A DNA stretch of 15,008 nucleotides from a virus. Lineage: Duplodnaviria; Heunggongvirae; Uroviricota; Caudoviricetes. The notes below the pieces were generated by a model, which was not told the DNA's origin, did not search any database, and saw nothing but the letters and a program-made list of their open reading frames with translations. Positions 1,840 to 15,008 of this stretch are shown here, one piece after another (position 1 is the stretch's first letter; every line of letters begins with the position of its first letter). The position numbers and the translations under genes are program-made. The DNA lies in the IMG/VR virus record IMGVR_UViG_2703718837_000004, one strand, 5' to 3'.

Positions 1840-2367
1840 ATGCAGCATTTAAAGAACATTAAGTCAGGTAATCCAAAAACAAAAGAGCAATATCAGCTAA
1901 CAAAGAATTTTGATGTTATCTGGTTATGGTCCGAAGACGGAAAAAACTGGTATGAGGAAGTAAGTAATTTTCAGCCAGACACAATAAAGATTGTTTACGA
2001 TGAAAATAATATTATTGTCGCCATCACCAGAGATGCTTCAACGCTTAATCCTGAAGGTTTTAGCGTCGTTGAGGTTCCTGATATTACTGCCAACCGGCGT
2101 GCTGATGACTCAGGTAAATGGATGTTTAAGGATGGTGCCGTGATTAAGCGGATTTATACGGCAGACGAACAGCAGAAACTAGCGGAATTACATAAGGCAG
2201 CTTTGCTTTCCGAAGCTGAATCCGTAATTTTGCCGCTGGAGCGCGCTGTCAGGCTGAATATGGCAACAGGTGAGGAGCGCAGTCGACTGGATGCATGGGA
2301 ACGCTACAGCGTTCTGGTCAGTCGTGTGGACCCTTCAAATCCTGAATGGCCGGACATGCCGCAATAA
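1840..2367 (+). CDS. G: Tail fiber assembly chaperone (P2 gpG-like, 175 aa)
   Basis: ATG 4 nt after the H stop with an AGGTG RBS. Length and sequence ([10 protein letters not shown]…EWPDMPQ) match P2 G as recalled; position immediately downstream of H is conserved. Confidence 0.9.
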
Positions 2368-2751
2368 GTTGTATGATCTCTGGAGTGAGCTAACGTATCT
2401 ATGGTACAGAGTAAAGCCTAATCTGACAGTCCGCTCCGAGTCAACAGCGGGAGTTGGAGTGCCAGATACTATCTAAAAGTTGATGGTTTCTTTTGTAGGG
2501 ATACCTACAGGCGCATTTGCACTTGAACAGTCAGAAGAACTCGACGAGACCGGCGTCGGCCAGAAAATGGCGAAGCCCGCATTTTCTACGACCGTTTGCA
2601 GGAACACTCTTGGATGTTACGTATAATAGTATGGTAGACCAGAATGACCGACAGCTTAGTGCTCAGACGGTGTAAAAAGGGAACGTTGCTAACGTTAATT
2701 TGTGTGATTAGTTGAAGGAATACTTATGCTGGTAACTATTTTTACTATTAA

Positions 2752-2769
2752 GGCCCTTGCTTTAGGGCC
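2752..2769 (-). terminator. Weak candidate terminator downstream of the RT gene
   Basis: Hairpin GGCCC-N8-GGGCC lying about 20 nt past the RT stop; on the minus strand it is followed by a moderately U-rich tract (UUAAUAGUAAAAAUAG). Confidence 0.3.
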
Positions 2770-2789
2770 AAAACATTAACTTTCTAAGG

Positions 2790-3887
2790 CTAGGGTTTTA
2801 GCAGTGCATTAGAAATTTCATCAATAATCACTGAGTATTTGGTGATTTCGTTTTCGTGAAAACATCTGAATTTATCATTAAATTTTACTAATGATATTAA
2901 ATATGAACGATAACCAGCTAACTTATTAGAGAATTGTGAATTATAAAAATCCGTTACAAACTGATCTGCATTGTTATTATACTTGACAGTTGGTGATTTA
3001 ACAGAAAATACTTTTTTGCAAATATGCTCTTTAGAATATCCCTTTTTAAATTTATCTAGTGCTTTCCGTATTAAATACATTTTTCCATTAGATATTCTTA
3101 TACTCCCTCTCTCTCCCCCTCCATTTTTATTTTCTATTACATAGCCGTTTAGTGAGATTATGCCTTTCTTAAATATTTTTTTATGTTTGTTGAGGGACAG
3201 TCCTGCCGTATTGACAATAGTTGATATCTCGTTGTCAAAATGTTCACTTCCAAGAAGTTTGTCTTTCCCGGAGCTCGAAAAAAGCATATCATCAGCATAA
3301 CGAGTGTAAATGATGCTTCTTTTGTCACACAAACTTTTAATTAAAATATCTAACTTTCTGAAAATTATATTGGATATGAAAGGTGATGTGGCGAATCCCA
3401 TTGGAAATATTTTTTTCTTTTTATTGTTGACTACAATCTCAATAGATAAACTATTTAAAAATGCATCAATAACTTTGATTTTTTTATTTACCAGATATTC
3501 ATCTTCAAAGTAGGATTTGAAACACTCCCTTGCAAAGTTATAGTTTATGTTATGAAAAAAATTACATAAGTCAATTCGACAAAAGTTCTCACCATGGATA
3601 TGAGGTTCTAGAAAATTCAAATAGTTTAATTTTTTACGATAGGCAATTGCAGGTGAGCTAAGAGGAACTTTTACTAGGAAATTTTTTATAAGTCTTTCTT
3701 GTATTTTTTTATGCGGGGAGCTTTTTCTTATAGTGAAACATAATCTATTCTTTAATGAAATGCTTTTATAATCGTCATTGGAAATCTCAGGGACTCCGTG
3801 AGTCATAATAATATCATCGGAGAATGTTTCTCTTAGATAAAAATTTTTATAAAAATCATTGTTAATTTTATTAATTTTATGTTTCAT
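2790..3887 (-). CDS. Reverse transcriptase (defence-associated type; retron-like or Abi-P2-like), 365 aa
   Basis: RT motifs readable in the translation: motif A …CRIDLCNFFHNI, motif B …FPMGFATSPFISNIIF, motif C …YTRYADDMLF (YADD). AGGAAG RBS 7-8 nt upstream of the ATG. Same strand as, and 120 nt downstream of, the OLD-like gene. Confidence 0.8.
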   Translation of the reverse strand: MKHKINKINNDFYKNFYLRETFSDDIIMTHGVPEISNDDYKSISLKNRLCFTIRKSSPHKKIQERLIKNFLVKVPLSSPAIAYRKKLNYLNFLEPHIHGENFCRIDLCNFFHNINYNFARECFKSYFEDEYLVNKKIKVIDAFLNSLSIEIVVNNKKKKIFPMGFATSPFISNIIFRKLDILIKSLCDKRSIIYTRYADDMLFSSSGKDKLLGSEHFDNEISTIVNTAGLSLNKHKKIFKKGIISLNGYVIENKNGGGERGSIRISNGKMYLIRKALDKFKKGYSKEHICKKVFSVKSPTVKYNNNADQFVTDFYNSQFSNKLAGYRSYLISLVKFNDKFRCFHENEITKYSVIIDEISNALLKP

Positions 3888-3893
3888 GTAAAA

Positions 3894-4043
3894 GCTTCCT
3901 CTTCGATACCAATAACATCTTTACACCCCGTGAGGCTTAAAGCGGCTTAGCGGACGCAAGACAATCCGAGCTAGTGTTTGCTGGAGCAAGTGACGGCATG
4001 CGTCAGCTCATTTGAGCCCTCCAGCTTCTATCGAAGAAGAAGC
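3894..4043 (-). ncRNA. Candidate structured ncRNA (retron msr-msd-like) bracketed by a 15-nt inverted repeat
   Basis: Arms at 3894-3908 (gcttcctcttcgata) and 4029-4043 (tatcgaagaagaagc). In the minus-strand transcript they pair over 15 positions (14 Watson-Crick plus one G.U); on the plus strand that position would be a C.A mismatch. Nested stems: gctggag 3980-3986 with ctccagc 4019-4025, and tgacg 3991-3995 with cgtca 4001-4005. Local G+C is clearly higher than in the flanking AT-rich genes. The distal arm sits immediately 5' of the RT start and contains its RBS; the proximal arm overlaps the last codons of the ATPase gene. Confidence 0.3.
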
Positions 4044-6272
4044 ATGATCGATGATATGCGAAATTTCAGGAAAAGCCAAGCGGAATTTTTTTTCGACATT
4101 TTCTTTATCTAGGGCTGAATAATGATTAAGGCTAAAATCAATGAAGCTTGTAACCCATCCAGAAGTCTTTCCTATGTAAGAACTCATAAAAGAGAAATTT
4201 TCTGACTTTAATGCTTTGATATAATCCAATATATCTTGCCGTATCGGTTTTTGATCAATTTTATAATGCATTTCTATACTTACAAGAGTTTCTGTTTTGC
4301 CACTAAAAATAAGGCGCAAGATAGCAACTTGGTCTTTTACGTCGGGGATGGTTTTTTTAAACTCATCAATTATTTCTTTAGCATATCTAATTTTAATGAT
4401 TTTCAATAATCTCATGTGTCGCAATGGTAGGTTATGATTTGTTTCACATTTTGAAAGTATTTTGGGAAAAAGTTGTTTTGATTGGGTTTTAATATCGTAT
4501 TTTTGCAGCAGAGCATTAATCATTTTTACAGGGTTTTTATTATTTACATTAAAGCTTCTCATTACTATGTCAATGATCCATAAAGAGAATGTCTCTAAAG
4601 AGAATTCATTGATCAATGAGCCTTCTATCGTTGTAGAAGTATAATAAACATTATCTTTAGAGGATAAAAAATTAACTGCGCTTATAACTCTGCCTATACT
4701 GAAGTGTCTGAATTTTAGGCCATTTTCACTGAATGTTACTTTCCTTTCATCTTGGCTTAAAAGAAATTTTGCTGCGTTAAGAAAAGGTTTTTGGTATGTC
4801 GAAAAATAGTGTAGTTTATCTCTCTTAATGATTTTATTAATAATTGATTTCCCTTTCGAATTAAATTTAAATTGTTCATGTTCGAAGTCAACAACGGCAA
4901 TCTGATCAATATCCTTTACTACTAGAAATGGGATGGCTGCATTTGAGTAGCTGGGGTTTATATTTTTCAACATTACTTCATCGCAATCATACACATCTAA
5001 CCTTTTAAGTACTGGAAACAGCTTTTGCAGATTATAATTTCTAAACAATTCAACTTCTGTGGCGCCCTCTACAAATAGAATGTATTCACTAAAGAATAGA
5101 CGGGCCTCATTATCGCTAAGCATATTTATAAATCTAATGTCATTATATTTAGAGTTTAATTTTGAAATTTTGGTCGAGTTGTCACGTTCTTTTGAAAAAT
5201 GCAAAACCTGCTGTTTATGTAAGAAAGATTTTAGCGTGAGTTTTAGTAAACTCGGAGAATGAGTGCTAAATATAAGAGTTGGATATGGTGTTGAATATTT
5301 TCCAGGCTCAATTTCCTCATGGGTTTTATCATACTTTTTATATGTCAGGCTTATGTTCTCAATAAAGTTCTCGCTAAGTTTTGGATGTAGCCCAATTTCA
5401 GGTTCATCAATATATATAATTGGATTGATAAATTCTGTTCTTGTTAATGAAATTAATAGGCTAAGTATAATTTCAAGATATTTGTGAGAGTTCGTGCCAT
5501 CCGACTGAACATGTAGTTCTTCACCTTTATTTATGAAAATATCGCCATCTAAAACTATTTTTAGATAATTAACGACTTTATCTTTATAGGTGTAAGGTTT
5601 AGTATGGATTACATTTTCAACTCTTTCTATATACTTCTTGTAACTACCCCGCTTAGTTGATATTTTCTCATTCAAAAACTCAAGGAGTTCTTCTTTTTTT
5701 ATTTCAGAGAAATTAAAGGAATTTATACTGCTGAGCATTTTCCATATGCTATTCCAGTCGTATAAGTCAATGTGTCTGGTTTCAATATGGAAAAAAGGAA
5801 ATAGAGTTTTAATTAGATGCCGGGCATTTGGTGTGCTAATTGACCAAGTTACGGAGTCATCTTTAGAAATTGTGAGTGTAATGCTATAAGTGCTTTTTCT
5901 TTGGAAACCCAAAGGAGATATGAAAGGAAGACAGAATTTCTGCGGCTTTCGGATGAATGATTGTGGCTTAAATAAAGTGTTATAAATATGCTTGTGAAAG
6001 CGACCATTGTTATTAGGGTTCATTACAATTCTCTTTATTCTTGTTACATCATAAGTCAATGTTATTGACCCTGAAGGAGTATAACTAGAATGAAAATCAG
6101 GAGGTATTACTTTTATGTCGTCAAGTTTGTCGTAAAAATATTTCAATATTTTCATAAGATTGGATTTGCCAACATTATTCATCCCTACAATGCAATTTAC
6201 ATCCTCTAGGGAATTTATTATTACATCATTAAATGATAGTAAGTTTTTTATTCTTATGCTTTGCAAACCCAT
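4008..6272 (-). CDS. OLD-family ABC-type ATPase / Toprim nuclease-like protein, 754 aa
   Basis: Walker A GMNNVGKS (aa 30-37), Walker B/D-loop IIYIDEPEIGLHP (aa ~285-297), H-loop FSTHSP (aa ~335-340). Toprim signature follows: ILFVEGATE (aa ~398-406) and FLVVKDIDQ (DxD, aa ~449-457). About 200 aa of C-terminal extension. RBS AAGGAA upstream of the ATG. Confidence 0.8.
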   Translation of the reverse strand: MGLQSIRIKNLLSFNDVIINSLEDVNCIVGMNNVGKSNLMKILKYFYDKLDDIKVIPPDFHSSYTPSGSITLTYDVTRIKRIVMNPNNNGRFHKHIYNTLFKPQSFIRKPQKFCLPFISPLGFQRKSTYSITLTISKDDSVTWSISTPNARHLIKTLFPFFHIETRHIDLYDWNSIWKMLSSINSFNFSEIKKEELLEFLNEKISTKRGSYKKYIERVENVIHTKPYTYKDKVVNYLKIVLDGDIFINKGEELHVQSDGTNSHKYLEIILSLLISLTRTEFINPIIYIDEPEIGLHPKLSENFIENISLTYKKYDKTHEEIEPGKYSTPYPTLIFSTHSPSLLKLTLKSFLHKQQVLHFSKERDNSTKISKLNSKYNDIRFINMLSDNEARLFFSEYILFVEGATEVELFRNYNLQKLFPVLKRLDVYDCDEVMLKNINPSYSNAAIPFLVVKDIDQIAVVDFEHEQFKFNSKGKSIINKIIKRDKLHYFSTYQKPFLNAAKFLLSQDERKVTFSENGLKFRHFSIGRVISAVNFLSSKDNVYYTSTTIEGSLINEFSLETFSLWIIDIVMRSFNVNNKNPVKMINALLQKYDIKTQSKQLFPKILSKCETNHNLPLRHMRLLKIIKIRYAKEIIDEFKKTIPDVKDQVAILRLIFSGKTETLVSIEMHYKIDQKPIRQDILDYIKALKSENFSFMSSYIGKTSGWVTSFIDFSLNHYSALDKENVEKKFRLAFPEISHIIDHASSSIEAGGLK

Positions 6273-6376
6273 GGGAGCGATTCCTTATAAAAATAAAACC
6301 TTGTATTCCTATAATTCGAGTGATGTCTCAACGGACTATTCGGAACAACTTTGGTTTATATAGCTCAAGTTTTTAT

Positions 6377-6400
6377 TCATTATTATGCATGTAATAATGA
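6377..6400. promoter_or_regulatory. Palindrome in the presumptive cargo promoter region (tcattatta-tgcatg-taataatga)
   Basis: Perfect 9-bp inverted repeat with a 6-bp spacer, 105-128 bp upstream of the ATPase start in AT-rich DNA. Operator-like; no cognate regulator gene is visible. Confidence 0.25.
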
Positions 6401-6648
6401 ATTACAAGTTTTCATTTTGCTTGGAATCAATTTTTTCACTCAGGTAAAGTAATTTTTGCGAGTGACTGTATGATACGGTCTCAATAGTATTAGAGCTTGA
6501 ATTCAGAATTGCAGTGATGCTCATTGTGCGGCTACTTTCACTGTATGCCATCCATGTCTGTTTCTCGCTCAAAGCAGGCTGTCAGATTTGATAGCGTTTT
6601 GGCTACGTATTTTGTCAGTTGGAAATTGAGAGAGTGCAAATCAAGGCT

Positions 6649-6675
6649 GGCGGGCTGATTGCCCGCCTTTTCTTT
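6649..6675 (+). terminator. Rho-independent terminator between the cargo island and the FI promoter region
   Basis: Stem GGCGGGC (6649-6655), loop tgatt, GCCCGCC (6661-6667), then TTTTCTTT. Would stop read-through from the H-G transcript before the F operon. Confidence 0.6.
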
Positions 6676-6771
6676 ATCTGTTGTTTCATCCACTGGCCAG
6701 CCAGGTCAAATAGCGTCTCATGCTCTGCACAACAGAAAATAGTTGCACCCATTAACCACGGAGTTAAACGG
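6676..6771 (+). promoter_or_regulatory. Presumptive late promoter region for the F operon (P_F-like)
   Basis: Placed by position only: between the terminator and the FI RBS (GGAG at 6761-6764). TGT triplets at 6679-6684 lie at roughly -55 if transcription starts about 30-40 nt upstream of FI, but an exact TGT-N12-ACA Ogr box is not present. Confidence 0.3.
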
Positions 6772-7962
6772 ATGAGTGACTATCATCATGGCGTGCAGGT
6801 GCTGGAGATTAACGACGGCACCCGCGTCATTTCCACCGTATCCACTGCCATTGTCGGCATGGTCTGCACGGCCAGCGATGCGGATGCGGAAACCTTCCCC
6901 CTCAATAAACCGGTGTTGATTACCAATGTGCAGAGCGCAATTGCAAAGGCCGGTAAAAAAGGCTCGCTGGCGGCATCGTTGCAGGCCATCGCCGACCAGT
7001 CAAAACCGGTCACCGTTGTCGTGCGTGTGGAAGACGGCACCGGCGACGACGAGGAAACGAAACTTGCGCAGACCGTTTCCAATATCATCGGCACCACCGA
7101 CGAAAACGGTCAGTACACCGGACTGAAAGCCCTGCTGGCGGCGGAGTCGGTAACCGGTGTTAAACCGCGTATTCTCGGTGTGCCGGGACTGGATACCAAA
7201 GAGGTGGCTGTTGCACTAGCATCCGTCTGTCAGAAGCTGCGCGCTTTCGGATATATCAGCGCATGGGGCTGTAAGACCATTTCCGAGGTGAAAGCCTACC
7301 GCCAGAATTTCAGCCAGCGTGAGCTGATGGTCATCTGGCCGGATTTCCTCGCATGGGATACGGTCACCAGTACCACCGCCACCGCGTATGCCACCGCCCG
7401 TGCGCTGGGTCTGCGCGCTAAAATCGACCAGGAGCAGGGCTGGCATAAAACGCTGTCCAACGTCGGGGTAAACGGTGTTACCGGCATCAGCGCATCTGTA
7501 TTCTGGGATTTGCAGGAGTCCGGCACCGATGCTGACCTGTTGAACGAGTCTGGCGTCACAACGCTGATTCGCCGCGACGGTTTCCGCTTCTGGGGTAACC
7601 GTACCTGCTCTGATGACCCGCTGTTCCTCTTTGAAAACTACACCCGCACCGCGCAGGTGCTGGCCGACACGATGGCTGAGGCGCACATGTGGGCGGTGGA
7701 CAAGCCCATCACCGCAACGCTGATTCGCGACATCGTTGACGGCATCAATGCCAAATTCCGTGAGCTGAAAACAAACGGCTATATCGTGGATGCGACCTGC
7801 TGGTTCAGCGAAGAATCCAACGATGCGGAAACCCTCAAGGCCGGAAAACTGTATATCGACTACGACTATACCCCGGTGCCTCCTCTCGAAAACCTGACCC
7901 TGCGCCAGCGTATTACCGATAAATACCTGGCAAATCTGGTCACCTCGGTTAACAGCAATTAA
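6772..7962 (+). CDS. FI: Contractile tail sheath protein (P2 gpFI-like, 396 aa)
   Basis: Start set at ATG 6772 (MSDYHHGVQVLEIN…) with a GGAG RBS 7 nt upstream. The ORF-track start at 6619 would run through the upstream terminator. Sequence matches P2 FI as recalled. Confidence 0.9.
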   Translation: MSDYHHGVQVLEINDGTRVISTVSTAIVGMVCTASDADAETFPLNKPVLITNVQSAIAKAGKKGSLAASLQAIADQSKPVTVVVRVEDGTGDDEETKLAQTVSNIIGTTDENGQYTGLKALLAAESVTGVKPRILGVPGLDTKEVAVALASVCQKLRAFGYISAWGCKTISEVKAYRQNFSQRELMVIWPDFLAWDTVTSTTATAYATARALGLRAKIDQEQGWHKTLSNVGVNGVTGISASVFWDLQESGTDADLLNESGVTTLIRRDGFRFWGNRTCSDDPLFLFENYTRTAQVLADTMAEAHMWAVDKPITATLIRDIVDGINAKFRELKTNGYIVDATCWFSEESNDAETLKAGKLYIDYDYTPVPPLENLTLRQRITDKYLANLVTSVNSN

Positions 7963-7974
7963 GGAGCCTGACCG

Positions 7975-8493
7975 ATGGCAATGCCGCGCAAACTCAAGTT
8001 AATGAACGTCTTTCTGAACGGCTACAGCTATCAGGGCGTTGCAAAGTCCCTCACGCTACCAAAACTGACCCGTAAGCTCGAAAACTATCGCGGTGCGGGG
8101 ATGAACGGCAGCGCACCGGTAGACCTCGGCCTTGATGACGATGCGCTGTCAATGGAGTGGTCGCTCGGTGGCTTCCCGGATTCGGTTATCTGGGAGCTTT
8201 ACGCAGCAACCGGCGTGGATGCCGTGCCGATTCGTTTTGCTGGCTCTTACCAGCGCGACGATACCGGCGAAACGGTTGCCGTCGAAGTGGTCATGCGTGG
8301 ACGTCAGAAAGAAATCGATACCGGCGAGGGTAAACAGGGAGAAGACACCGAGTCGAAAATCTCCGTGGTCTGTACCTATTTCCGGCTGACGATGGACGGT
8401 AAGGAGCTGGTCGAAATCGACACCATCAACATGATTGAGAAGGTGAACGGCGTCGACCGGCTGGAGCAACACCGCCGCAATATCGGCCTGTGA
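7975..8493 (+). CDS. FII: Tail tube protein (P2 gpFII-like, 172 aa)
   Basis: AGGAG RBS; MAMPRKLKLMNVFLNGYSYQGVAKS… matches P2 FII as recalled; conserved position after FI. Confidence 0.9.
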   Translation: MAMPRKLKLMNVFLNGYSYQGVAKSLTLPKLTRKLENYRGAGMNGSAPVDLGLDDDALSMEWSLGGFPDSVIWELYAATGVDAVPIRFAGSYQRDDTGETVAVEVVMRGRQKEIDTGEGKQGEDTESKISVVCTYFRLTMDGKELVEIDTINMIEKVNGVDRLEQHRRNIGL

Positions 8494-8549
8494 TTTTCAT
8501 CCGGTCAGCCTGGCTGACCGGTTAACCCTGATTCAGAAGTGAGAAAACC

Positions 8550-8825
8550 ATGAACAAAGAAAATGTGATTACCCTGGACAATCCGGTCAAACGTGGTGAG
8601 CAGGTTATCGAACAGGTCACGCTGATGAAACCCAGTGCCGGGACGCTGCGCGGTGTCAGTCTGGCTGCGGTCGCGAACTCCGAAGTCGATGCACTGATTA
8701 AGGTGCTGCCGCGCATGACTGCACCGATGCTGACCGAGCAGGAAGTCGCCGCACTGGAACTGCCTGACCTTGTGGCGCTGGCCGGTAAGGTGGTCGGTTT
8801 TTTGTCGCCGAACTCGGTGCAGTGA
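8550..8825 (+). CDS. E: Tail assembly chaperone E (P2 gpE-like, 91 aa)
   Basis: MNKENVITLDNPVKRGEQVIEQ…; GAGAAAACC upstream of the ATG. Contains the slippery heptamer near its 3' end. Confidence 0.85.
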   Translation: MNKENVITLDNPVKRGEQVIEQVTLMKPSAGTLRGVSLAAVANSEVDALIKVLPRMTAPMLTEQEVAALELPDLVALAGKVVGFLSPNSVQ

Positions 8826-8977
8826 CGTTCCCGAAAAATCTGTCGGTCGATGACCTGATGGCGGATGTGGCAGTGATATTTCACTGGCCGCCATCAGAAC
8901 TGTATCCCATGAGCCTGACCGAACTCATCACATGGCGCGAAAAGGCGCTCCGGCGAAGTGGAAGCACGAATGAGTAA
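8550..8977 (+). CDS. E': E+E' fusion chaperone produced by programmed -1 frameshift
   Basis: Slippery site T TTT TTG at 8798-8804 in E frame. The -1 frame continues from 8804 as VAELGAVTFPKNLSVDDLMADVAVIFHWPPSELYPMSLTELITWREKALRRSGSTNE to TAA at 8975-8977, overlapping the T start. Same arrangement as P2 E/E' and lambda G/GT. Confidence 0.7.
8798..8804 (+). other. -1 ribosomal frameshift slippery heptamer (T TTT TTG)
   Basis: X XXY YYZ motif in the E reading frame, followed by an open -1 frame of 57 codons. Confidence 0.7.
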
Positions 8978-11417
8978 CAATGTAAAATTACAGGTATTGC
9001 TCAGGGCTGTTGACCAGGCATCCCGCCCGTTTAAATCCATCCGTACAGCGAGCAGGTCGCTGTCGGGGGATATCCGGGAAACACAAAAATCACTGCGCGA
9101 GCTGAACGGTCACGCATCCCGTATTGAGGGATTCCGCAAGACCAGTGCACAGCTCGCCGTGACTGGTCATGCACTTGAAAAGGCACGGCAGGAAGCCGAA
9201 GCCCTTGCCACACAGTTTAAAAACACCGAACGTCCGACCCGTGCTCAGGCGAAAGTGCTGGAATCCGCAAAGCGTGCGGCGGAGGACTTACAGGCGAAAT
9301 ATAACCGCCTGACAGATTCCGTTAAACGCCAGCAGCGGGAACTGGCCGCTGTGGGAATTAATACCCGCAATCTTGCACATGATGAGCAGGGACTGAAAAA
9401 CCGTATCAGTGAAACCACCGCACAGCTTAACCGTCAGCGTGATGCGCTGGCGCGTGTCAGTGCGCAACAGGCAAAACTTAACGCAGTAAAACAGCGTTAT
9501 CAGGCCGGAAAGGAACTGGCCGGAAATATGGCCTCAGTGGGCGCTGCCGGTGTGGGGATTGCGGCGGCGGGAACGATGGCCGGTGTTAAGCTACTGATGC
9601 CCGGTTATGAGTTTGCGCAGAAAAACTCAGAATTGCAGGCCGTGCTAGGTGTGGCAAAAGACTCCGCCGAAATGGCCGCACTCCGCAAGCAGGCGCGCCA
9701 GCTCGGCGACAATACCGCCGCCTCGGCAGATGATGCAGCCGGTGCGCAGATTATTATTGCGAAAGCCGGTGGGGATGTTGATGCCATTCAGGCGGCAACG
9801 CCGGTCACGCTGAACATGGCGCTGGCGAACCGCCGCACGATGGAAGAAAACGCCGCCCTGTTGATGGGGATGAAATCCGCCTTTCAGCTTTCAAACGATA
9901 AGGTCGCTCATATCGGGGATGTTCTCTCCATGACGATGAACAAAACCGCCGCCGATTTTGACGGCATGAGCGATGCGCTGACCTATGCCGCACCTGTGGC
10001 AAAAAATGCCGGTGTCAGCATTGAAGAAACCGCCGCAATGGTCGGGGCGCTGCATGATGCAAAAATCACAGGCTCAATGGCGGGGACGGGAAGCCGTGCC
10101 GTGTTAAGCCGCCTGCAGGCACCGACGGGAAAAGCATGGGATGCACTGAAAGAGCTTGGTGTGAAAACCTCAGACAGCAAGGGAAACACCCGACCAATAT
10201 TTACCATTCTGAAAGAAATGCAGGCCAGTTTTGAGAAAAACCGGCTCGGTACTGCCCAGCAGGCTGAATACATGAAAACCATTTTCGGGGAGGAGGCCAG
10301 CTCAGCCGCCGCCGTGCTGATGACTGCCGCCTCAACCGGAAAGCTGGACAAACTGACCGCTGCGTTTAAAGCCTCAGACGGAAAGACCGCAGAGCTGGTT
10401 AAAATCATGCAGGATAACCTCGGCGGTGACTTTAAGGAGTTTCAGTCCGCTTATGAGGCGGTGGGGACAGACCTGTTTGACCAGCAGGAAGGCGCACTGC
10501 GTAAGCTCACTCAGACGGCCACAAAGTATGTGTTAAAACTCGACGGCTGGATACAGAAAAACAAATCACTGGCGTCAACCATCGGCCTCATTGTCGGTGG
10601 CGCACTGGCGCTGACTGGCATCATCGGTGCCATTGGTCTTGTAGCCTGGCCGGTTATCACCGGCATTAATGCCATCATCGCGGCAGCAGGCGCAATGGGG
10701 GCAATTTTCACGACGGTTGGCAGTGCTGTTATGACCGCCATCGGGGCGATTAGCTGGCCGGTTGTGGCCGTGGTGGCCGCCATTGTCGCCGGGGCGTTAC
10801 TTATCCGTAAATACTGGGAGCCTGTCAGCGCATTCTTTGGCGGTGTGGTGGAAGGGCTGAAAGCGGCATTTGCGCCGGTGGGGGAGCTGTTCACGCCACT
10901 GAAACCGGTGTTTGACTGGCTGGGCGAAAAGTTACAGGCTGCGTGGCAGTGGTTTAAAAACCTGATTGCCCCGGTCAAAGCCACTCAGGACACCCTGAAC
11001 AGTTGCCGTGACACGGGTGTCATGTTCGGGCAGGCACTGGCTGACGCGCTGATGCTGCCGCTTAATGCGTTCAACAAACTGCGCAGCGGTATTGACTGGG
11101 TACTGGAAAAACTCGGGGTTATCAACAAAGAGTCAGACACACTTGACCAGACCGCCGCAAGGACTCATGCCGCCACGTATGGCACCGGTGGTTATATTCC
11201 GGCGACCAGCTCTTATGCAGGTTATCAGGCTTATCAGCCGGTTACGGCACCGGCTGGCCGCTCTTATGTGGACCAGAGTAAAAACGAATATCACATCAGC
11301 CTGACGGGTGGTACTGCGCCGGGGACACAGCTTGACCGCCAGTTACAGGATGCGCTCGAAAAATACGAGCGGGATAAACGTGCGCGCGCCCGTGCCAGCA
11401 TGATGCATGACGGTTAA
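8970..11417 (+). CDS. T: Tail tape measure protein (P2 gpT-like, 815 aa)
   Basis: ATG at 8970 (MSNNVKLQVLLRAVDQ…) with a GGAAG RBS. The ORF-track start at 8958 is an in-frame upstream GTG. Long alanine/glycine-rich hydrophobic central segment typical of tape measure proteins. Confidence 0.85.
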   Translation: MSNNVKLQVLLRAVDQASRPFKSIRTASRSLSGDIRETQKSLRELNGHASRIEGFRKTSAQLAVTGHALEKARQEAEALATQFKNTERPTRAQAKVLESAKRAAEDLQAKYNRLTDSVKRQQRELAAVGINTRNLAHDEQGLKNRISETTAQLNRQRDALARVSAQQAKLNAVKQRYQAGKELAGNMASVGAAGVGIAAAGTMAGVKLLMPGYEFAQKNSELQAVLGVAKDSAEMAALRKQARQLGDNTAASADDAAGAQIIIAKAGGDVDAIQAATPVTLNMALANRRTMEENAALLMGMKSAFQLSNDKVAHIGDVLSMTMNKTAADFDGMSDALTYAAPVAKNAGVSIEETAAMVGALHDAKITGSMAGTGSRAVLSRLQAPTGKAWDALKELGVKTSDSKGNTRPIFTILKEMQASFEKNRLGTAQQAEYMKTIFGEEASSAAAVLMTAASTGKLDKLTAAFKASDGKTAELVKIMQDNLGGDFKEFQSAYEAVGTDLFDQQEGALRKLTQTATKYVLKLDGWIQKNKSLASTIGLIVGGALALTGIIGAIGLVAWPVITGINAIIAAAGAMGAIFTTVGSAVMTAIGAISWPVVAVVAAIVAGALLIRKYWEPVSAFFGGVVEGLKAAFAPVGELFTPLKPVFDWLGEKLQAAWQWFKNLIAPVKATQDTLNSCRDTGVMFGQALADALMLPLNAFNKLRSGIDWVLEKLGVINKESDTLDQTAARTHAATYGTGGYIPATSSYAGYQAYQPVTAPAGRSYVDQSKNEYHISLTGGTAPGTQLDRQLQDALEKYERDKRARARASMMHDG

Positions 11418-11431
11418 GGAGGTGACGAAAA

Positions 11432-11911
11432 ATGATGCTCGCGTTAGGTATGTTTGTTTTTATGCGCCAGACGCTGCCACACCAGACCATGCAGCGTGAA
11501 TCAGATTATCGCTGGCCGTCAAATTCCCGTATCGGTAAACGGGACGCTTTTCAGTTTCTCGGTGTGGGTGAGGAAAACATCACGCTGGCCGGTGTGCTTT
11601 ATCCCGAACTGACCGGCGGAAAGCTGACGATGACCACGCTCAGGATGATGGCAGAGGAAGGCCGGGCGTGGCCGTTGCTGGATGGCACCGGCATGATTTA
11701 CGGCATGTATGTCATCAGCAGGGTAAGTGAAACAGGGAGTATTTTCTTTGCAGACGGCACACCCCGGAAAATTGATTTTACGCTGTCGCTCACCCGCGTT
11801 GATGAATCACTGGCCGCGCTTTATGGCGATATCGGTAAACAGGCGGAATCGCTCATCGGTAAAGCTGGCAGTATGGCGACCAGATTCACGGGGATGACGG
11901 GGGCGGGATAA
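11432..11911 (+). CDS. U: Tail protein U (P2 gpU-like, 159 aa)
   Basis: AAGGAGG RBS 8 nt upstream; MMLALGMFVFMRQTLPHQ… matches P2 U as recalled. Confidence 0.9.
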   Translation: MMLALGMFVFMRQTLPHQTMQRESDYRWPSNSRIGKRDAFQFLGVGEENITLAGVLYPELTGGKLTMTTLRMMAEEGRAWPLLDGTGMIYGMYVISRVSETGSIFFADGTPRKIDFTLSLTRVDESLAALYGDIGKQAESLIGKAGSMATRFTGMTGAG

Positions 11912-13074
11912 TGCTGGATGCACTGACATTTGATGCAGGCAGTACGCTGACGCCGGATTACATGCTGATGCTCGACAGCAGGGATATTACCGGCAATATC
12001 AGCGACCGTCTGATGAGCATGACCCTGACGGATAACCGGGGCTTTGAGGCTGACCAGCTTGATATTGAACTGAACGATGCCGACGGGCAGGTCGGGCTAC
12101 CGGTTCGTGGCGCTGTCCTGACGGTGTATATCGGCTGGAAAGGTTTTGCCCTGGTATGCAAAGGGAAATTCACCGTTGATGAGGTTGAACACCGGGGCGC
12201 GCCGGATGTGGTCACCATCCGCGCCCGGAGTGCAGATTTTCGCGGGACGCTCAATTCCCGCCGGGAAGGCTCCTGGCATGACACCACACTCGGTGCGATT
12301 GTTGAAGCGATAGCCTCCCGTAACAGGCTGGAAGCCAGTGTCGCTCCGTCACTGGCCGGAATTAAAATCCCGCACATCGACCAGTCGCAGGAGTCTGATG
12401 CGAAATTCCTGACCCGTCTTGCAGAACGCAACGGCGGTGAGGTGTCGGTAAAAATGGGAAAACTGTTGTTTCTCAAAGCGGGGCAGGGGGTGACGGCCAG
12501 CGGTAAAAAAATCCCGCAGATTACCATCACCCGCAGCGACGGCGACCGTCATCATTTTGCGATTGCTGACCGTGGAGCTTACACCGGCGTAACGGCAAAG
12601 TGGTTACACACCAAAGACCCGAAGCCGCAAAAGCAGAAGGTAAAACTGAAACGCAAAAAGAAAGAAAAACACCTGCGCGCACTGGAGCACCCGAAAGCGA
12701 AACCGGTCACGCAGAAGAAAGCGCCAAAAGTACCGGAAGCGCGCGAAGGTGAATACATGGCCGGTGAGGCTGACAACGTTTTTGCCCTGACTACGGTATA
12801 TGCCACGAAAGCGCAGGCCATGCGCGCCGCTCAGGCGAAGTGGGATAAACTGCAACGGGGTGTGGCGGAGTTCTCCATCAGCCTGGCTACCGGTCGGGCA
12901 GATATTTACACGGAAACACCGGTTAAAGTGTCAGGCTTTAAGCGCGTCATAGACGAGCAGGACTGGACAATCACTAAGGTGACACATTTTCTGAATAATA
13001 GCGGCTTCACGACGTCCTTAGAGCTTGAGGTCAGGCTTTCTGATGTGGAGTACGAAACAGAAGATGATGAGTGA
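11911..13074 (+). CDS. D: Tail protein D (P2 gpD-like, 387 aa)
   Basis: Start overlaps the U stop (TAATG). Sequence matches P2 D as recalled. Contains a Lys-rich low-complexity segment (KPQKQKVKLKRKKKEKH…). Confidence 0.9.
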   Translation: MLDALTFDAGSTLTPDYMLMLDSRDITGNISDRLMSMTLTDNRGFEADQLDIELNDADGQVGLPVRGAVLTVYIGWKGFALVCKGKFTVDEVEHRGAPDVVTIRARSADFRGTLNSRREGSWHDTTLGAIVEAIASRNRLEASVAPSLAGIKIPHIDQSQESDAKFLTRLAERNGGEVSVKMGKLLFLKAGQGVTASGKKIPQITITRSDGDRHHFAIADRGAYTGVTAKWLHTKDPKPQKQKVKLKRKKKEKHLRALEHPKAKPVTQKKAPKVPEAREGEYMAGEADNVFALTTVYATKAQAMRAAQAKWDKLQRGVAEFSISLATGRADIYTETPVKVSGFKRVIDEQDWTITKVTHFLNNSGFTTSLELEVRLSDVEYETEDDE

Positions 13075-13155
13075 TGTTTTTATTTTATCTGTTTGTTTTA
13101 TAAGGATAAATTAACTAAAATGGCACCATCAATAAAACCGGAAGAGGTGCTCGCG

Positions 13156-13374
13156 ATGTTTCATTGTCCTTTATGCCAGCATGCCGCACATGCGCGTACA
13201 AGCCGCTATATCACTGACACGACAAAAGAGCGTTATCACCAGTGTCAGAACGTGAATTGCAGCGCCACGTTCATCACTTATGAGTCGGTACAGCGATACA
13301 TCGTGAAGCCGGGAGAAGTCCACGCCGTAAGGCCACACCCGTTGCCGTCAGGGCAGCAAATTATGTGGATGTAA
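13156..13374 (+). CDS. ogr: Late gene transcriptional activator Ogr (zinc-finger, 72 aa)
   Basis: MFHCPLCQHAAHARTSRYITDTTKERYHQCQNVNCSATF… with a CxxC…CxxxxC zinc-binding motif; matches P2 Ogr as recalled. The ORF-track start at 13093 is an upstream in-frame extension; AT-rich putative promoter at 13075-13125. Confidence 0.85.
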   Translation: MFHCPLCQHAAHARTSRYITDTTKERYHQCQNVNCSATFITYESVQRYIVKPGEVHAVRPHPLPSGQQIMWM

Positions 13375-13386
13375 TTACAAACAGAA

Positions 13387-13412
13387 AGCCCCTCAGTCGA
13401 GGGGCTTTTTTG
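13387..13412 (+). terminator. Rho-independent terminator downstream of ogr
   Basis: Stem AGCCCCTC (13387-13394), loop agtc, GAGGGGCT (13399-13406), then TTTTTTG. Confidence 0.6.
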
Positions 13413-13475
13413 TCGATGTGGTCAATGTGTGGACGTGACCAGAAATAAATCCTTTTATTTCAATTTGTTGTACGT

Positions 13476-13502
13476 AAAAAATAAGCCCGTGTAAGGGAGA
13501 TT
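13476..13502. repeat. att core (27 nt, aaaaaataagcccgtgtaagggagatt), right copy, overlapping the cyaR terminator
   Basis: Matches the P2 att core as recalled. The first 20 nt are repeated exactly at 478-497. Phage arm lies to the left, bacterial DNA (cyaR, yegQ) to the right. Confidence 0.75.
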
Positions 13503-13562
13503 ACACAGGCTAAGGAGGTGGTTCCTGGTACAGCTAGCATTTTATGGGTTATGTTTTTCAGC
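13476..13562 (-). ncRNA. cyaR: CyaR (RyeE) Hfq-dependent small RNA
   Basis: Minus-strand sequence GCUGAAAAACAUAACCCAUAAAAUGCUAGCUGUACCAGGAACCACCUCCUUAGCCUGUGUAAUCUCCCUUACACGGGCUUAUUUUUU matches the E. coli CyaR sequence as recalled. Includes the C/U-rich seed and a terminator hairpin plus U-tail whose 3' half is the att core. Confidence 0.7.
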
Positions 13563-13596
13563 GAAACGGATGATAACCTTAATAAATGCAGCTGTA

Positions 13597-13646: not shown

Positions 13647-15008
13647 TCACTTACCGTGGGGATTACGCGTGGTTTCCCCGGAGAAATTACGCATCAGCAG
13701 CGCGTAATTGAGCTCAAGATCCTGCGGGACCGGGAGCCACACAGTATAACCATCGCCTGGTGCTATCGGCATAGCTTCGCCTTTGGCGTTTTCCATGTGC
13801 TCAAGGGTAAAATTAATGTTGCCTTGCGGCGTCATCAGCTCAAGGCTGTCGCCAACGGAGAATTTATTTTTCACCGCTACCGCCGCGAGGTCCCCCTTGC
13901 GCTCACCGGTAAACTCACCAACAAACTGCTGGCGGTCAGAAACTGAATAACCGTATTCGTAGTTCTGATAATCGTCGTGAGTATGACGACGCAGGAAACC
14001 TTCGGTATAGCCACGATGCGCCAGACCTTCCAGAGTTTCCAGCAGGCTGGTATCGAACGGTTTTCCCGCAACGGCGTCATCGATAGCTTTGCGGTAAACC
14101 TGTGCGGTGCGTGCACAATAGTAGAAAGATTTGGTACGACCTTCGATTTTCAGCGAATGCACGCCCATTTTGGTCAGGCGTTCTACATGGGCGATGGCGC
14201 GCAGATCTTTCGAGTTCATGATGTAAGTGCCGTGCTCATCTTCAAACGCGGTCATATACTCGCCCGGACGCTGGGCCTCTTCGATCATAAACACTTTGTC
14301 GGTTGGTGCGCCGATACCCAGCGTCGGCTCAACATTTTGCACCGGAATCGGCTCGTACTTGTGTACGATGTTGCCAACATCATCTTCTTTCCCTTCCTGG
14401 ACGTTGTACTCCCAGCGGCAGGCGTTGGTGCAGGTGCCCTGGTTCGGGTCGCGCTTGTTGATATAGCCAGAGAGCAGGCAGCGACCGGAGTAGGCCATGC
14501 ACAGCGCGCCGTGAACGAAGATCTCGATCTCCATATCCGGCACCTGATTGCGGATCTCTTCAATCTCTTCCAGCGACAGCTCGCGAGAGAGGATCACGCG
14601 GGTCAGGCCCATTTGCTGCCAGAATTTCACCGTCGCCCAGTTCACGGCGTTAGCCTGCACCGAAAGGTGGATCGGCATTTCAGGGAAGTGCTCACGCACC
14701 AGCATAATCAGCCCTGGATCGGACATAATCAGCGCATCCGGCCCCATTTCCACCACCGGTTTCAGGTCACGGATAAAGGTTTTCAGCTTGGCGTTGTGCG
14801 GTGCAATGTTGACCACGACATAAAACTTTTTCCCCAGCGCGTGGGCTTCATTGATGCCGAGCTGAAGATTTTCGTGGTTGAATTCGTTGTTGCGCACACG
14901 CAGGGAATAACGCGGCTGGCCCGCATAAACAGCATCTGCGCCATAAGCGAAAGCGTAACGCATATTTTTCAGCGTTCCCGCCGGGGAAAGGAGTTCCGGT
15001 TTAAACAT
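13647..15008 (-). CDS. yegQ: U32-family peptidase-like protein YegQ (453 aa), complete
   Basis: Full ORF from ATG (15006-15008 on the minus strand) to stop. MFKPELLSPAGTLKNMRYAFAYGADAVYAGQPRYSLR… matches E. coli YegQ as recalled. Cys-rich region CMAYSGRCLLSGYINKRDPNQGTCTNACRW. Confidence 0.85.
   Translation of the reverse strand: MFKPELLSPAGTLKNMRYAFAYGADAVYAGQPRYSLRVRNNEFNHENLQLGINEAHALGKKFYVVVNIAPHNAKLKTFIRDLKPVVEMGPDALIMSDPGLIMLVREHFPEMPIHLSVQANAVNWATVKFWQQMGLTRVILSRELSLEEIEEIRNQVPDMEIEIFVHGALCMAYSGRCLLSGYINKRDPNQGTCTNACRWEYNVQEGKEDDVGNIVHKYEPIPVQNVEPTLGIGAPTDKVFMIEEAQRPGEYMTAFEDEHGTYIMNSKDLRAIAHVERLTKMGVHSLKIEGRTKSFYYCARTAQVYRKAIDDAVAGKPFDTSLLETLEGLAHRGYTEGFLRRHTHDDYQNYEYGYSVSDRQQFVGEFTGERKGDLAAVAVKNKFSVGDSLELMTPQGNINFTLEHMENAKGEAMPIAPGDGYTVWLPVPQDLELNYALLMRNFSGETTRNPHGK

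Follow-up and report, generated by a model that had tools for sequence, protein, structure and literature searches.

What kind of system is encoded by the two adjacent genes that a P2-type prophage carries between its tail genes G and FI, and do the two belong together? This question is raised by a 15,008-nucleotide (nt) stretch of viral DNA (Caudoviricetes; IMG/VR record IMGVR_UViG_2703718837_000004), referred to here as the window. An earlier interpretation made from the letters alone (the sequence-only reading) had described two co-oriented minus-strand genes, a reverse transcriptase (RT) gene at 2790–3887 and an OLD-family ATPase/Toprim gene at 4008–6272, with a gap of 120 nt between them. 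These open reading frames (ORFs; 365 and 754 amino acids, gap 3888–4007) are exactly as it gave them. Our analysis indicates that the locus is very probably a retron of the Retron-Eco8 family (type I-B2 of Mestre), complete and apparently functional, whose three components, an OLD-family effector, a structured noncoding RNA (ncRNA) and a retron RT, are encoded in that order. The features of this type that we found are a retron RT with an intact active site, an OLD-like effector carrying EGxxE and DxD motifs, an inverted-repeat-flanked msr-msd RNA with a predicted branching G at 4028 and an opposing G at 3909, the gene order, and the linkage between RT and effector.

When the product of the downstream gene (2790–3887, minus strand) was compared with the PADLOC models, the retron model RT_I-B gave 353.5 bits (E = 2.7e-106), whereas the next-best retron models gave at most 115 bits and other models gave E-values of 1e-33 or weaker. 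Its best 25 PADLOC matches were all retron models (24 RT models and one labelled RT_outgroup), with no Abi model among them. A search of PDB sequences matched it to the Retron Eco8 RT over residues 6–363 (E = 6.5e-88), and Pfam RVT_1 matched with 56 bits, in agreement with the RT motifs, including YADD, that had been read by eye. The conserved residues are D106 (D107 in Eco8), PMG at 162–164, YADD at 197–200 and (L)NG at 246–248. On the PADLOC scores, the RT is a retron RT and not Abi-P2-like. A stand-alone UG/Abi RT of the Abi-P2 type was rejected because the best 25 matches are retron models and because the locus has an msr-msd RNA as well as an obligate partner gene. A group II intron or diversity-generating retroelement RT was rejected as well (the group II model gave 37 bits against a cutoff of 300), as was a type I-A or I-C retron on the basis of PADLOC and NCBIfam scores, the I-A and I-C RT models giving only 60–90 bits. 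The Drt2 model gave only 38 bits.

The product of the upstream gene (4008–6272, minus strand) is assigned by profile and PDB matches to the class-3 OLD-family nucleases, with an ABC ATPase, a dimerisation and a Toprim domain; Eco8-type OLD proteins form this separate class (class 3), which has an expanded Toprim domain. It reached 654 bits against the NCBIfam equivalog retron_eff_Eco8 (cutoff 250) and 699 bits against the PADLOC model ATPase-Toprim_I-B (E = 1.6e-210), and among PDB sequences it matched the Retron Eco8 OLD nuclease over residues 1–750 (E = 3e-227). Pfam AAA_15 and AAA_21 were also found, together with a sub-threshold match to OLD-like_TOPRIM, so that the profile searches agree with the ABC-ATPase and Toprim motifs noted earlier. 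The PADLOC models for Old, GajA and AriA matched weakly (E-values of 1e-12 to 1e-17). Gabija (GajA/GajB) and a stand-alone P2 Old were rejected, their models giving 1e-14 to 1e-16 against 1e-210 and no helicase gene being found within the insert, and PARIS was rejected on its PADLOC and NCBIfam scores.

We also examined the residues on which activity would depend. The effector has a Walker A lysine at K36, which had been guessed correctly from the letters and which the Eco8 alignment supports, a Walker B motif at D289/E290, the Toprim motif EGATE at 402–406 (EGxxE) and DID at 454–456 (DxD). The Eco8 catalytic residues K36, D285/E286, E398, E402, D450/D452, E544, K653 and K693 align here with K36, D289/E290, E402, E406, D454/D456, E550, K659 and K702, respectively, and K671 (K665 in Eco8) is conserved. 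In these alignments, every residue that was mutated or named as catalytic in the Eco8 papers is kept in both the OLD protein and the RT. The full-length matches to solved Eco8 chains settle the fold of both proteins. For the comparison of loci, Eco8 was represented by a recovered contig (L083; its RT is P0017), whose RT differs from the PDB Eco8 chain at one aligned position.

The third component lies between and partly within these genes. A covariance model and the Eco8 alignment place a retron ncRNA (msr-msd) at 3894–4043 on the minus strand, 150 nt long between the outer ends of its two inverted-repeat arms. The arms, IRa1 (GCUUCUUCUUCGAUA, 4029–4043, minus strand) and IRa2 (UAUCGAAGAGGAAGC, 3894–3908, minus strand, identified by reading the sequence), form a 15-nt inverted repeat with 14 Watson-Crick pairs and one G-U pair and bracket 120 nt. 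The sequence-only reading had placed a structured RNA in the gap; such an RNA is present, but it is not confined to the gap, being longer (150 nt) than the gap itself (120 nt). The OLD coding sequence (codons ASSSIEAGGLK*) contains the first 36 nt of this RNA, which ends 6 nt before the RT gene. IRa1 is identical to its counterpart in Eco8 and is followed there by the G numbered rG18 in the Eco8 papers, a numbering that was checked against PMC12887533. The G at 4028 (minus strand), immediately 3' of IRa1 in a conserved ...GAUA-G frame, aligns to Eco8 G18 and is predicted to be the branching G that primes reverse transcription. The msr RNA portion occupies 58 nt (3971–4028, minus strand; 64 nt in Eco8); it is closed by the stem CUGGAG/CUCCAG and contains two hairpins. 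The msd template is placed at 3909–3979 (minus strand) by positional homology to Eco8 rA73 through the opposing G3909. The multicopy single-stranded DNA (msDNA) would accordingly be the plus strand of 3909–3979, with a predicted length of 71 nt (75 nt in Eco8) and a predicted start opposite G3909. Relative to Eco8, conservation of the RNA is highest in the first msd stem-loop and in the 3' region of the msd.

The 150-nt RNA has a minimum free energy of -57.5 kcal/mol (z = -3.5). A covariance model (R1) that was built from nine other members of the family, leaving out the present clade, matched the window at 3890–4047 on the minus strand with 89.1 bits (E = 1.9e-23); the only other match in the window below E = 0.01 was the reverse strand of the same interval, with 19.8 bits. 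With the same model, 32 of 34 proteobacterial loci show an RNA just upstream of the RT gene (seven of these 32 were inputs to the model), whereas the 10 Firmicutes loci searched (L037–L046) gave no match. RNAalifold on seven close sequences recovered the IRa1/IRa2 stem, the msr closing stem and a hairpin, with compensatory changes in eight pairs; in the msr, the closing stem came out with 7 base pairs (bp) and the second hairpin with 4 bp, and compensatory changes were seen relative to Eco8 and other loci. Among the nine more distant members, compensatory changes were seen in 15 of 25 pairs, and the IRa1/IRa2 stem in alignment A3 showed them in 11 of 17. Between the window and the Serratia copy there are about four substitutions in the ncRNA, two of which make up a compensatory change from G-C to A-U in the first hairpin. 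A direct scan for the frame "stem-A/G ... G/T-stem" returned 38 distinct inner stems among 62 sequences with an arm of at least 9 bp (the window and related loci from Proteobacteria to Firmicutes), a count that choosing the best stem biases towards pairing. In the Firmicutes loci (L037–L082), the inverted repeats end in ...AGTA-G or ...GGCA-G, compared with ...GATA-G in Proteobacteria, and the ncRNA is longer (about 170–240 nt) and ends 10–60 nt before the RT. No RNA feature is annotated at this position in the RefSeq record NZ_CM137000.1 (3219751–3219910, equivalent to 3888–4047 of the window).

How, then, would this RNA be transcribed? A candidate sigma-70 promoter for an ncRNA-RT transcript is found at 4051–4079 on the minus strand, within the 3' end of the OLD gene (-35 TTGGCT at 4079–4074 and -10 TATCAT at 4056–4051; 9 of 12 consensus positions). 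A consensus scan of 2300–6700 gave 18 matches against 18.3 expected from shuffled sequence, which is not above chance. The -10 hexamer, however, lies 5–6 nt before IRa1 here and likewise in Eco8 (TATAAT), E. coli 675SK2 (TATAAT) and Serratia (TATTAT). Because the scan count equals chance and the position of this -10 is conserved, we used the scan only for the -10 preceding IRa1. Millman et al. gave a length of 165 nt for the Eco8 ncRNA, its start being placed from a promoter predicted upstream of the RT. This length exceeds the Eco8 intergenic gap (119 nt in the comparison contig), which agrees with a promoter located before IRa1 inside the OLD gene. We infer that the ncRNA-RT promoter of the present locus also lies inside the 3' end of its OLD gene. 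The interval 4008–4079 (minus strand) is dual-coding, in that the last 12 OLD codons (through ASSSIEAGGLK*) also specify IRa1, the branching G and the start of the msr, and the codons just before this stretch carry the candidate -35 and -10. The ASSSIE codons, which correspond to IRa1, are almost invariant at the DNA level among Eco8, E. coli 675SK2, Marinomonas, Serratia and this locus. At the other end of the RNA, the Shine-Dalgarno sequence of the RT gene (GAGGAA, 3901–3896) lies within IRa2, 9 nt ahead of the ATG at 3887. Therefore, the IRa1/IRa2 stem, when formed, would occlude the RT ribosome-binding site, and this occlusion could couple RT translation to the folding or processing of the ncRNA.

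Next, we considered whether the two genes form one unit. With an RT profile, 80 related loci were found, and in 76 of them, from Proteobacteria to Firmicutes, the RT is directly preceded by an OLD homologue in the same orientation; in the other four, the contig extends at most about 1.1 kb upstream. Relative to the Serratia and Pectobacterium copies, both genes showed low ratios of nonsynonymous to synonymous divergence (dN/dS of 0.09 for the RT and 0.10 for the effector), with dS of about 1 and amino-acid identities of 82–84%. On this comparative evidence, the OLD gene, the ncRNA and the RT are one conserved three-part unit under purifying selection. The description of the pair as one operon of an anti-phage type, now an OLD-family ATPase/Toprim nuclease with an RNA and an RT, has thus stood, whereas the accompanying possibility of two independent systems is refuted by the upstream position of the OLD homologue in 76 of the 80 loci and by the shared ncRNA.

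The flanks in the window match phage P2 with 95–97% identity, and this homology stops at 2450 and restarts at 6562, so that the position between G and FI had been given correctly. The left block (496–2450) comprises genes H and G, and the right block (6562–13502) comprises the pF region, FI, FII, E, T, U, D, ogr and the attP core; the neighbours of the insert are G (tail fibre assembly, 1840–2367) and FI (6772–7962). The insert itself (2451–6561, 4.1 kb, with no strand of its own) is AT-rich cargo that occupies the fun(Z) place of phage P2, the G-FI tail-gene hotspot; P2 has the V-operon terminator and fun(Z) in the corresponding interval. The very AT-rich setting noted earlier was borne out, with a G+C content of 0.30–0.33 over about 2500–6500 against 0.51–0.59 in the P2 genes on the right. 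The non-coding flanks of the insert (2451–2733 and 6312–6561) were found in just the two retron-bearing genomes among 5426 complete E. coli genomes, and a scan of them for small ORFs of at least 25 amino acids gave no credible candidate. A GC hairpin (GGCCCU-aaagca-AGGGCC, 2752–2769, minus strand), read from the sequence 21 nt past the RT stop codon at the end of the conserved cassette, falls within the span common to the Serratia and Pectobacterium copies and is a possible transcript end; it was not called in the terminator scan of 2300–6700, since it has no T run.

The prophage is not an intact P2. It is a P2 remnant in which P2 sequence begins at about 494, inside the tail-fibre gene H (truncated ORF H', 559–1836) and beside yegR. 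None of the head, lysis, baseplate or early genes is left, yet the retron cargo is intact. Positions 1–318 encode YegR, and positions 1–497 are the core E. coli yegR region, present in 5420 of the 5426 complete genomes; the junction between yegR and gene H occurs in no complete E. coli genome of this collection. The best match to the whole left part of the window was CP057250.1 (99.98%). At the right end, the prophage overlaps the CyaR/RyeE small RNA gene (13479–13564, minus strand; Rfam, 100.7 bits). P2 homology, including the attP core, stops at 13502 within the 3' terminator part of cyaR, so that the att core appears to rebuild the 3' end of the CyaR RNA. The next gene is trhP (yegQ; 13647–15008, minus strand).

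The unit common to other species, that is, the retron cassette proper, is 2734–6311 (minus strand). Over exactly this interval, DNA identity is 81–83% to Serratia marcescens MSU97 (L003) and Pectobacterium sp. PL152 (L004), and the Serratia copy (L003, 1577–5156) lies outside any P2 prophage, between an ArsP-type permease gene and nrdG/nrdD. Meanwhile, the identical insert is present in an intact P2 prophage of E. coli UPEC85 (100% over 2500–6600) and, at 99.7%, in STK77-E; the cassette differs by at most about 0.1% from the copies in intact P2 prophages. A public assembly index lists the exact RT protein in 522 blocks, and in all 24 contigs examined that carry it, the locus lies between the tail fibre assembly and sheath genes, in P2 prophages that are intact, disrupted by insertion sequences or truncated. 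Presence of the same 3.6-kb cassette in an E. coli P2 prophage and at non-prophage chromosomal sites in Serratia and Pectobacterium shows that it is mobile cargo that moves between such places.

This retron occurs in only two of the 5426 complete E. coli genomes. A second Eco8-family lineage occurs in 36 complete E. coli genomes at another site (for example 675SK2, L002 4914–8405, NZ_CP027701.1), where the retron (WP_000659976/WP_012602815) has IS630 and IS1 fragments and phage gene fragments nearby. A megablast search of 50,697 phage records with the insert gave no retron match, and no P2-like phage deposited there carries either E. coli lineage. When the same records were searched by tblastn with the OLD protein, there was a single match (PQ189354.1, 11427–13400; 35% identity, 95% coverage); this record is Vibrio phage 10N.286.54.F2_PE001, in which the OLD homologue is annotated as a hypothetical protein. 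In the portion of the Rousset et al. supplements that was searched, the two RefSeq protein accessions gave no match. RT homologues in Serratia, Proteus, Morganella, Providencia and Edwardsiella have at least 71% identity, after which identity drops to at most 44%. Therefore, the RT belongs to a separate sub-lineage.

It has been reported that Eco8 requires the YADD motif of its RT, the branching G, the ATPase and the Toprim domain, and that it forms a 4:4:4 complex triggered when a phage SSB (single-stranded DNA-binding protein) binds the msDNA (PMC12887533, PMC13402713). By homology to Eco8, the RT of the present locus would prime on the 2'-OH of G4028 and copy the msd from 3979 to 3909, giving a branched msDNA of about 71 nt. 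RT, msDNA and OLD protein would then assemble as a 4:4:4 autoinhibited complex. A phage SSB would bind and remodel the msd stem-loops and thereby release the OLD activity, and the Toprim nuclease would degrade phage and host DNA, leading to abortive infection. The P2-type prophage whose fun(Z) hotspot holds the cassette was later truncated, so that the cassette may now act as a chromosomal defence island.

Several observations weigh against this interpretation. Identity to Eco8 is low (41% for the RT and about 49% for the OLD protein, the latter over Eco8 residues 158–750). At 150 nt against 165 nt in Eco8, the ncRNA is shorter by 15 nt, and its second msd stem-loop differs. The Eco8 FDYY loop (481–484) reads FSTY here and is the sole named Eco8 element that differs. 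The predicted msDNA, folded alone as DNA, is no stabler than its shuffles (z = +0.78), and because of this we take the msDNA structure from homology only. The RT stays below the cutoff of every NCBIfam RT model (the highest-scoring, for the retron St85 RT, gave 118 against 235), so that it is named only generically. A search of all Rfam families with E-values up to 1 gave no retron RNA match and returned only CyaR, and the scan of 2300–6700 found no promoter above chance for the OLD gene. In addition, the prophage is cut within gene H at about 494, with everything to the left missing. This truncation and the lack of a clear promoter upstream of the OLD gene would fit a decaying relic, in which a non-functional retron merely persists in a degraded prophage. 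However, both ORFs are intact, the catalytic residues are present, dN/dS is about 0.09, the ncRNA is intact, and the cassette is nearly indistinguishable from the copies in intact P2 prophages; moreover, defence genes in defective P2 elements have been reported to remain near-identical to those in intact ones (PMC13586616). We therefore consider decay very improbable. Still harder to credit is a chance neighbourhood of a stand-alone Abi-type RT (Abi-P2-like) and a stand-alone OLD or Gabija-like nuclease. Stand-alone Old and AbiP2 are indeed known as cargo of P2-type prophages, and the OLD protein does match the Old, GajA and AriA models weakly, but in almost all related loci, across Proteobacteria and Firmicutes, the pair is adjacent and co-oriented, divergence is similarly fast in both genes, and the linking RNA reaches from within the OLD gene to just short of the RT. 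The protein scores point the same way (RT_I-B at 353 bits with no Abi model among the best 25 matches; Old and GajA models at 1e-16 or weaker against 1e-210).

A third alternative is that the locus is a functional Eco8-family retron with another trigger or phage range, responding for example to another class of SSB or to another single-stranded DNA-binding protein. In Eco8, SSB binds the msd stem-loops, and the FDYY loop becomes ordered on SSB binding (PMC13402713, PMC12887533); the elements that have changed here include this SSB-responsive loop, the length of the ncRNA, the predicted msDNA (71 versus 75 nt) and the second stem-loop, and the low protein identities and the separate RT sub-lineage are also in favour of this alternative. 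On the other hand, no part of the RNA is better conserved than the first msd stem-loop and the 3' region of the msd, and all protein catalytic residues, as well as K671 (Eco8 K665), are conserved. An altered trigger is thus possible but doubtful. A more specific proposal can also be made, which we offer as a speculation and think unlikely in this full form. Because FDYY has become FSTY, the predicted msDNA is shorter and the second msd stem-loop is altered, the sub-lineage might have a changed sensing surface that responds to phage single-stranded DNA-binding proteins other than those sensed by Eco8, possibly without firing on P2, its carrier, or on P4. Furthermore, because IRa2 sequesters the RT ribosome-binding site and the promoter and IRa1 lie in the last codons of the effector gene, RT translation and msDNA supply might be coupled to ncRNA folding. 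A complete Eco8-family retron remains our preferred interpretation of the locus as a whole.

Is such a retron new? The sequence-only reading had proposed that the order of effector, RNA and RT might represent an undescribed variant. This did not survive, because the order is the published Eco8/I-B2 layout, standard models call both proteins, and RefSeq names the effector. In the identical E. coli locus, RefSeq labels it as a "retron Eco8 family effector endonuclease" and the RT as a "reverse transcriptase domain-containing protein". The kind of system is already known, then, and the locus is already labelled at the family level in RefSeq; with the system type, structure and trigger all published, the discovery value is small. 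What the alignments add is that the locus is a divergent and previously unstudied member of the Eco8 family. Of modest value are the record of an Eco8-family retron that is carried in the P2 tail-gene (fun(Z)) hotspot and stayed intact after the prophage decayed, and the precise placing of an ncRNA annotated in neither RefSeq nor Rfam. As a natural divergent variant, with a predicted 71-nt msDNA and an altered SSB-responsive loop, the retron may be of use for comparing trigger specificity or for retron-based editing.

The closest known system is Retron-Eco8 itself (E. coli 200499; Millman et al. 2020; cryo-EM structures of 2025–2026 such as PDB 9lbq and 9p4j), for which the arrangement of effector, ncRNA and RT has been published (PMC12887533, PMC13402713); the same arrangement is the layout of type I-B2 (Mestre et al. 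2020). The two loci have in common this order on one strand, a gap of nearly equal length (119 nt in Eco8 and 120 nt here), the IRa1 sequence, the context of the branching G, two msr hairpins, two msd stem-loops, the catalytic residues and full-length protein alignments. They differ in RT and OLD sequence (41% and about 49% identity), in the lengths of the ncRNA (150 versus 165 nt) and predicted msDNA (71 versus 75 nt), in the FDYY loop (FSTY here) and in genomic context, which here is the P2 tail-gene hotspot. Table 1 of Mestre et al. lists for type I-B2 an ABC ATPase joined with a Toprim domain whose motifs IV and V are EGxxE and DxD; the present locus has this signature, the loci recovered here, like the type, span Proteobacteria and Firmicutes, and no difference was found. 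The 675SK2-type retron is alike in architecture and nearly alike in IRa1/IRa2, with 88% identity over 73 nt (3874–3946 of the window, covering the 3' part of the msd, IRa2 and the start of the RT gene), but its RT and OLD proteins have only 43% and 51% identity and it lies outside the P2 hotspot.

Retron-Eco2/Ec67 (type I-C) and Retron-Eco7/Ec78 (type I-A) are likewise retrons with Toprim or ATPase-nuclease effectors. In type I-C, however, the Toprim domain is fused to the RT without an ATPase, and in type I-A a Septu-like ATPase and an HNH protein are encoded downstream of the RT. Rousset et al. list a putative type I-C retron among the systems of P2 hotspots. P2 Old, Gabija GajA and PARIS AriA, which belong to stand-alone or two-gene systems, share the logic of an ABC ATPase joined to a Toprim domain, but have no RT or msDNA partner. 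Abi-P2 had also been cited as a precedent for an RT at this locus, but that precedent probably concerns another hotspot: in Rousset et al., the locus of the Odegrip RT (Abi-P2) is cited for the gpA-gpQ (old/tin) hotspot, so that AbiP2 was apparently described there rather than at G-FI. AbiP2 is, like the present RT, carried as anti-phage cargo by P2-type prophages; it belongs to the UG/Abi RT clade and stands alone without msDNA, whereas the RT described here is a retron RT.

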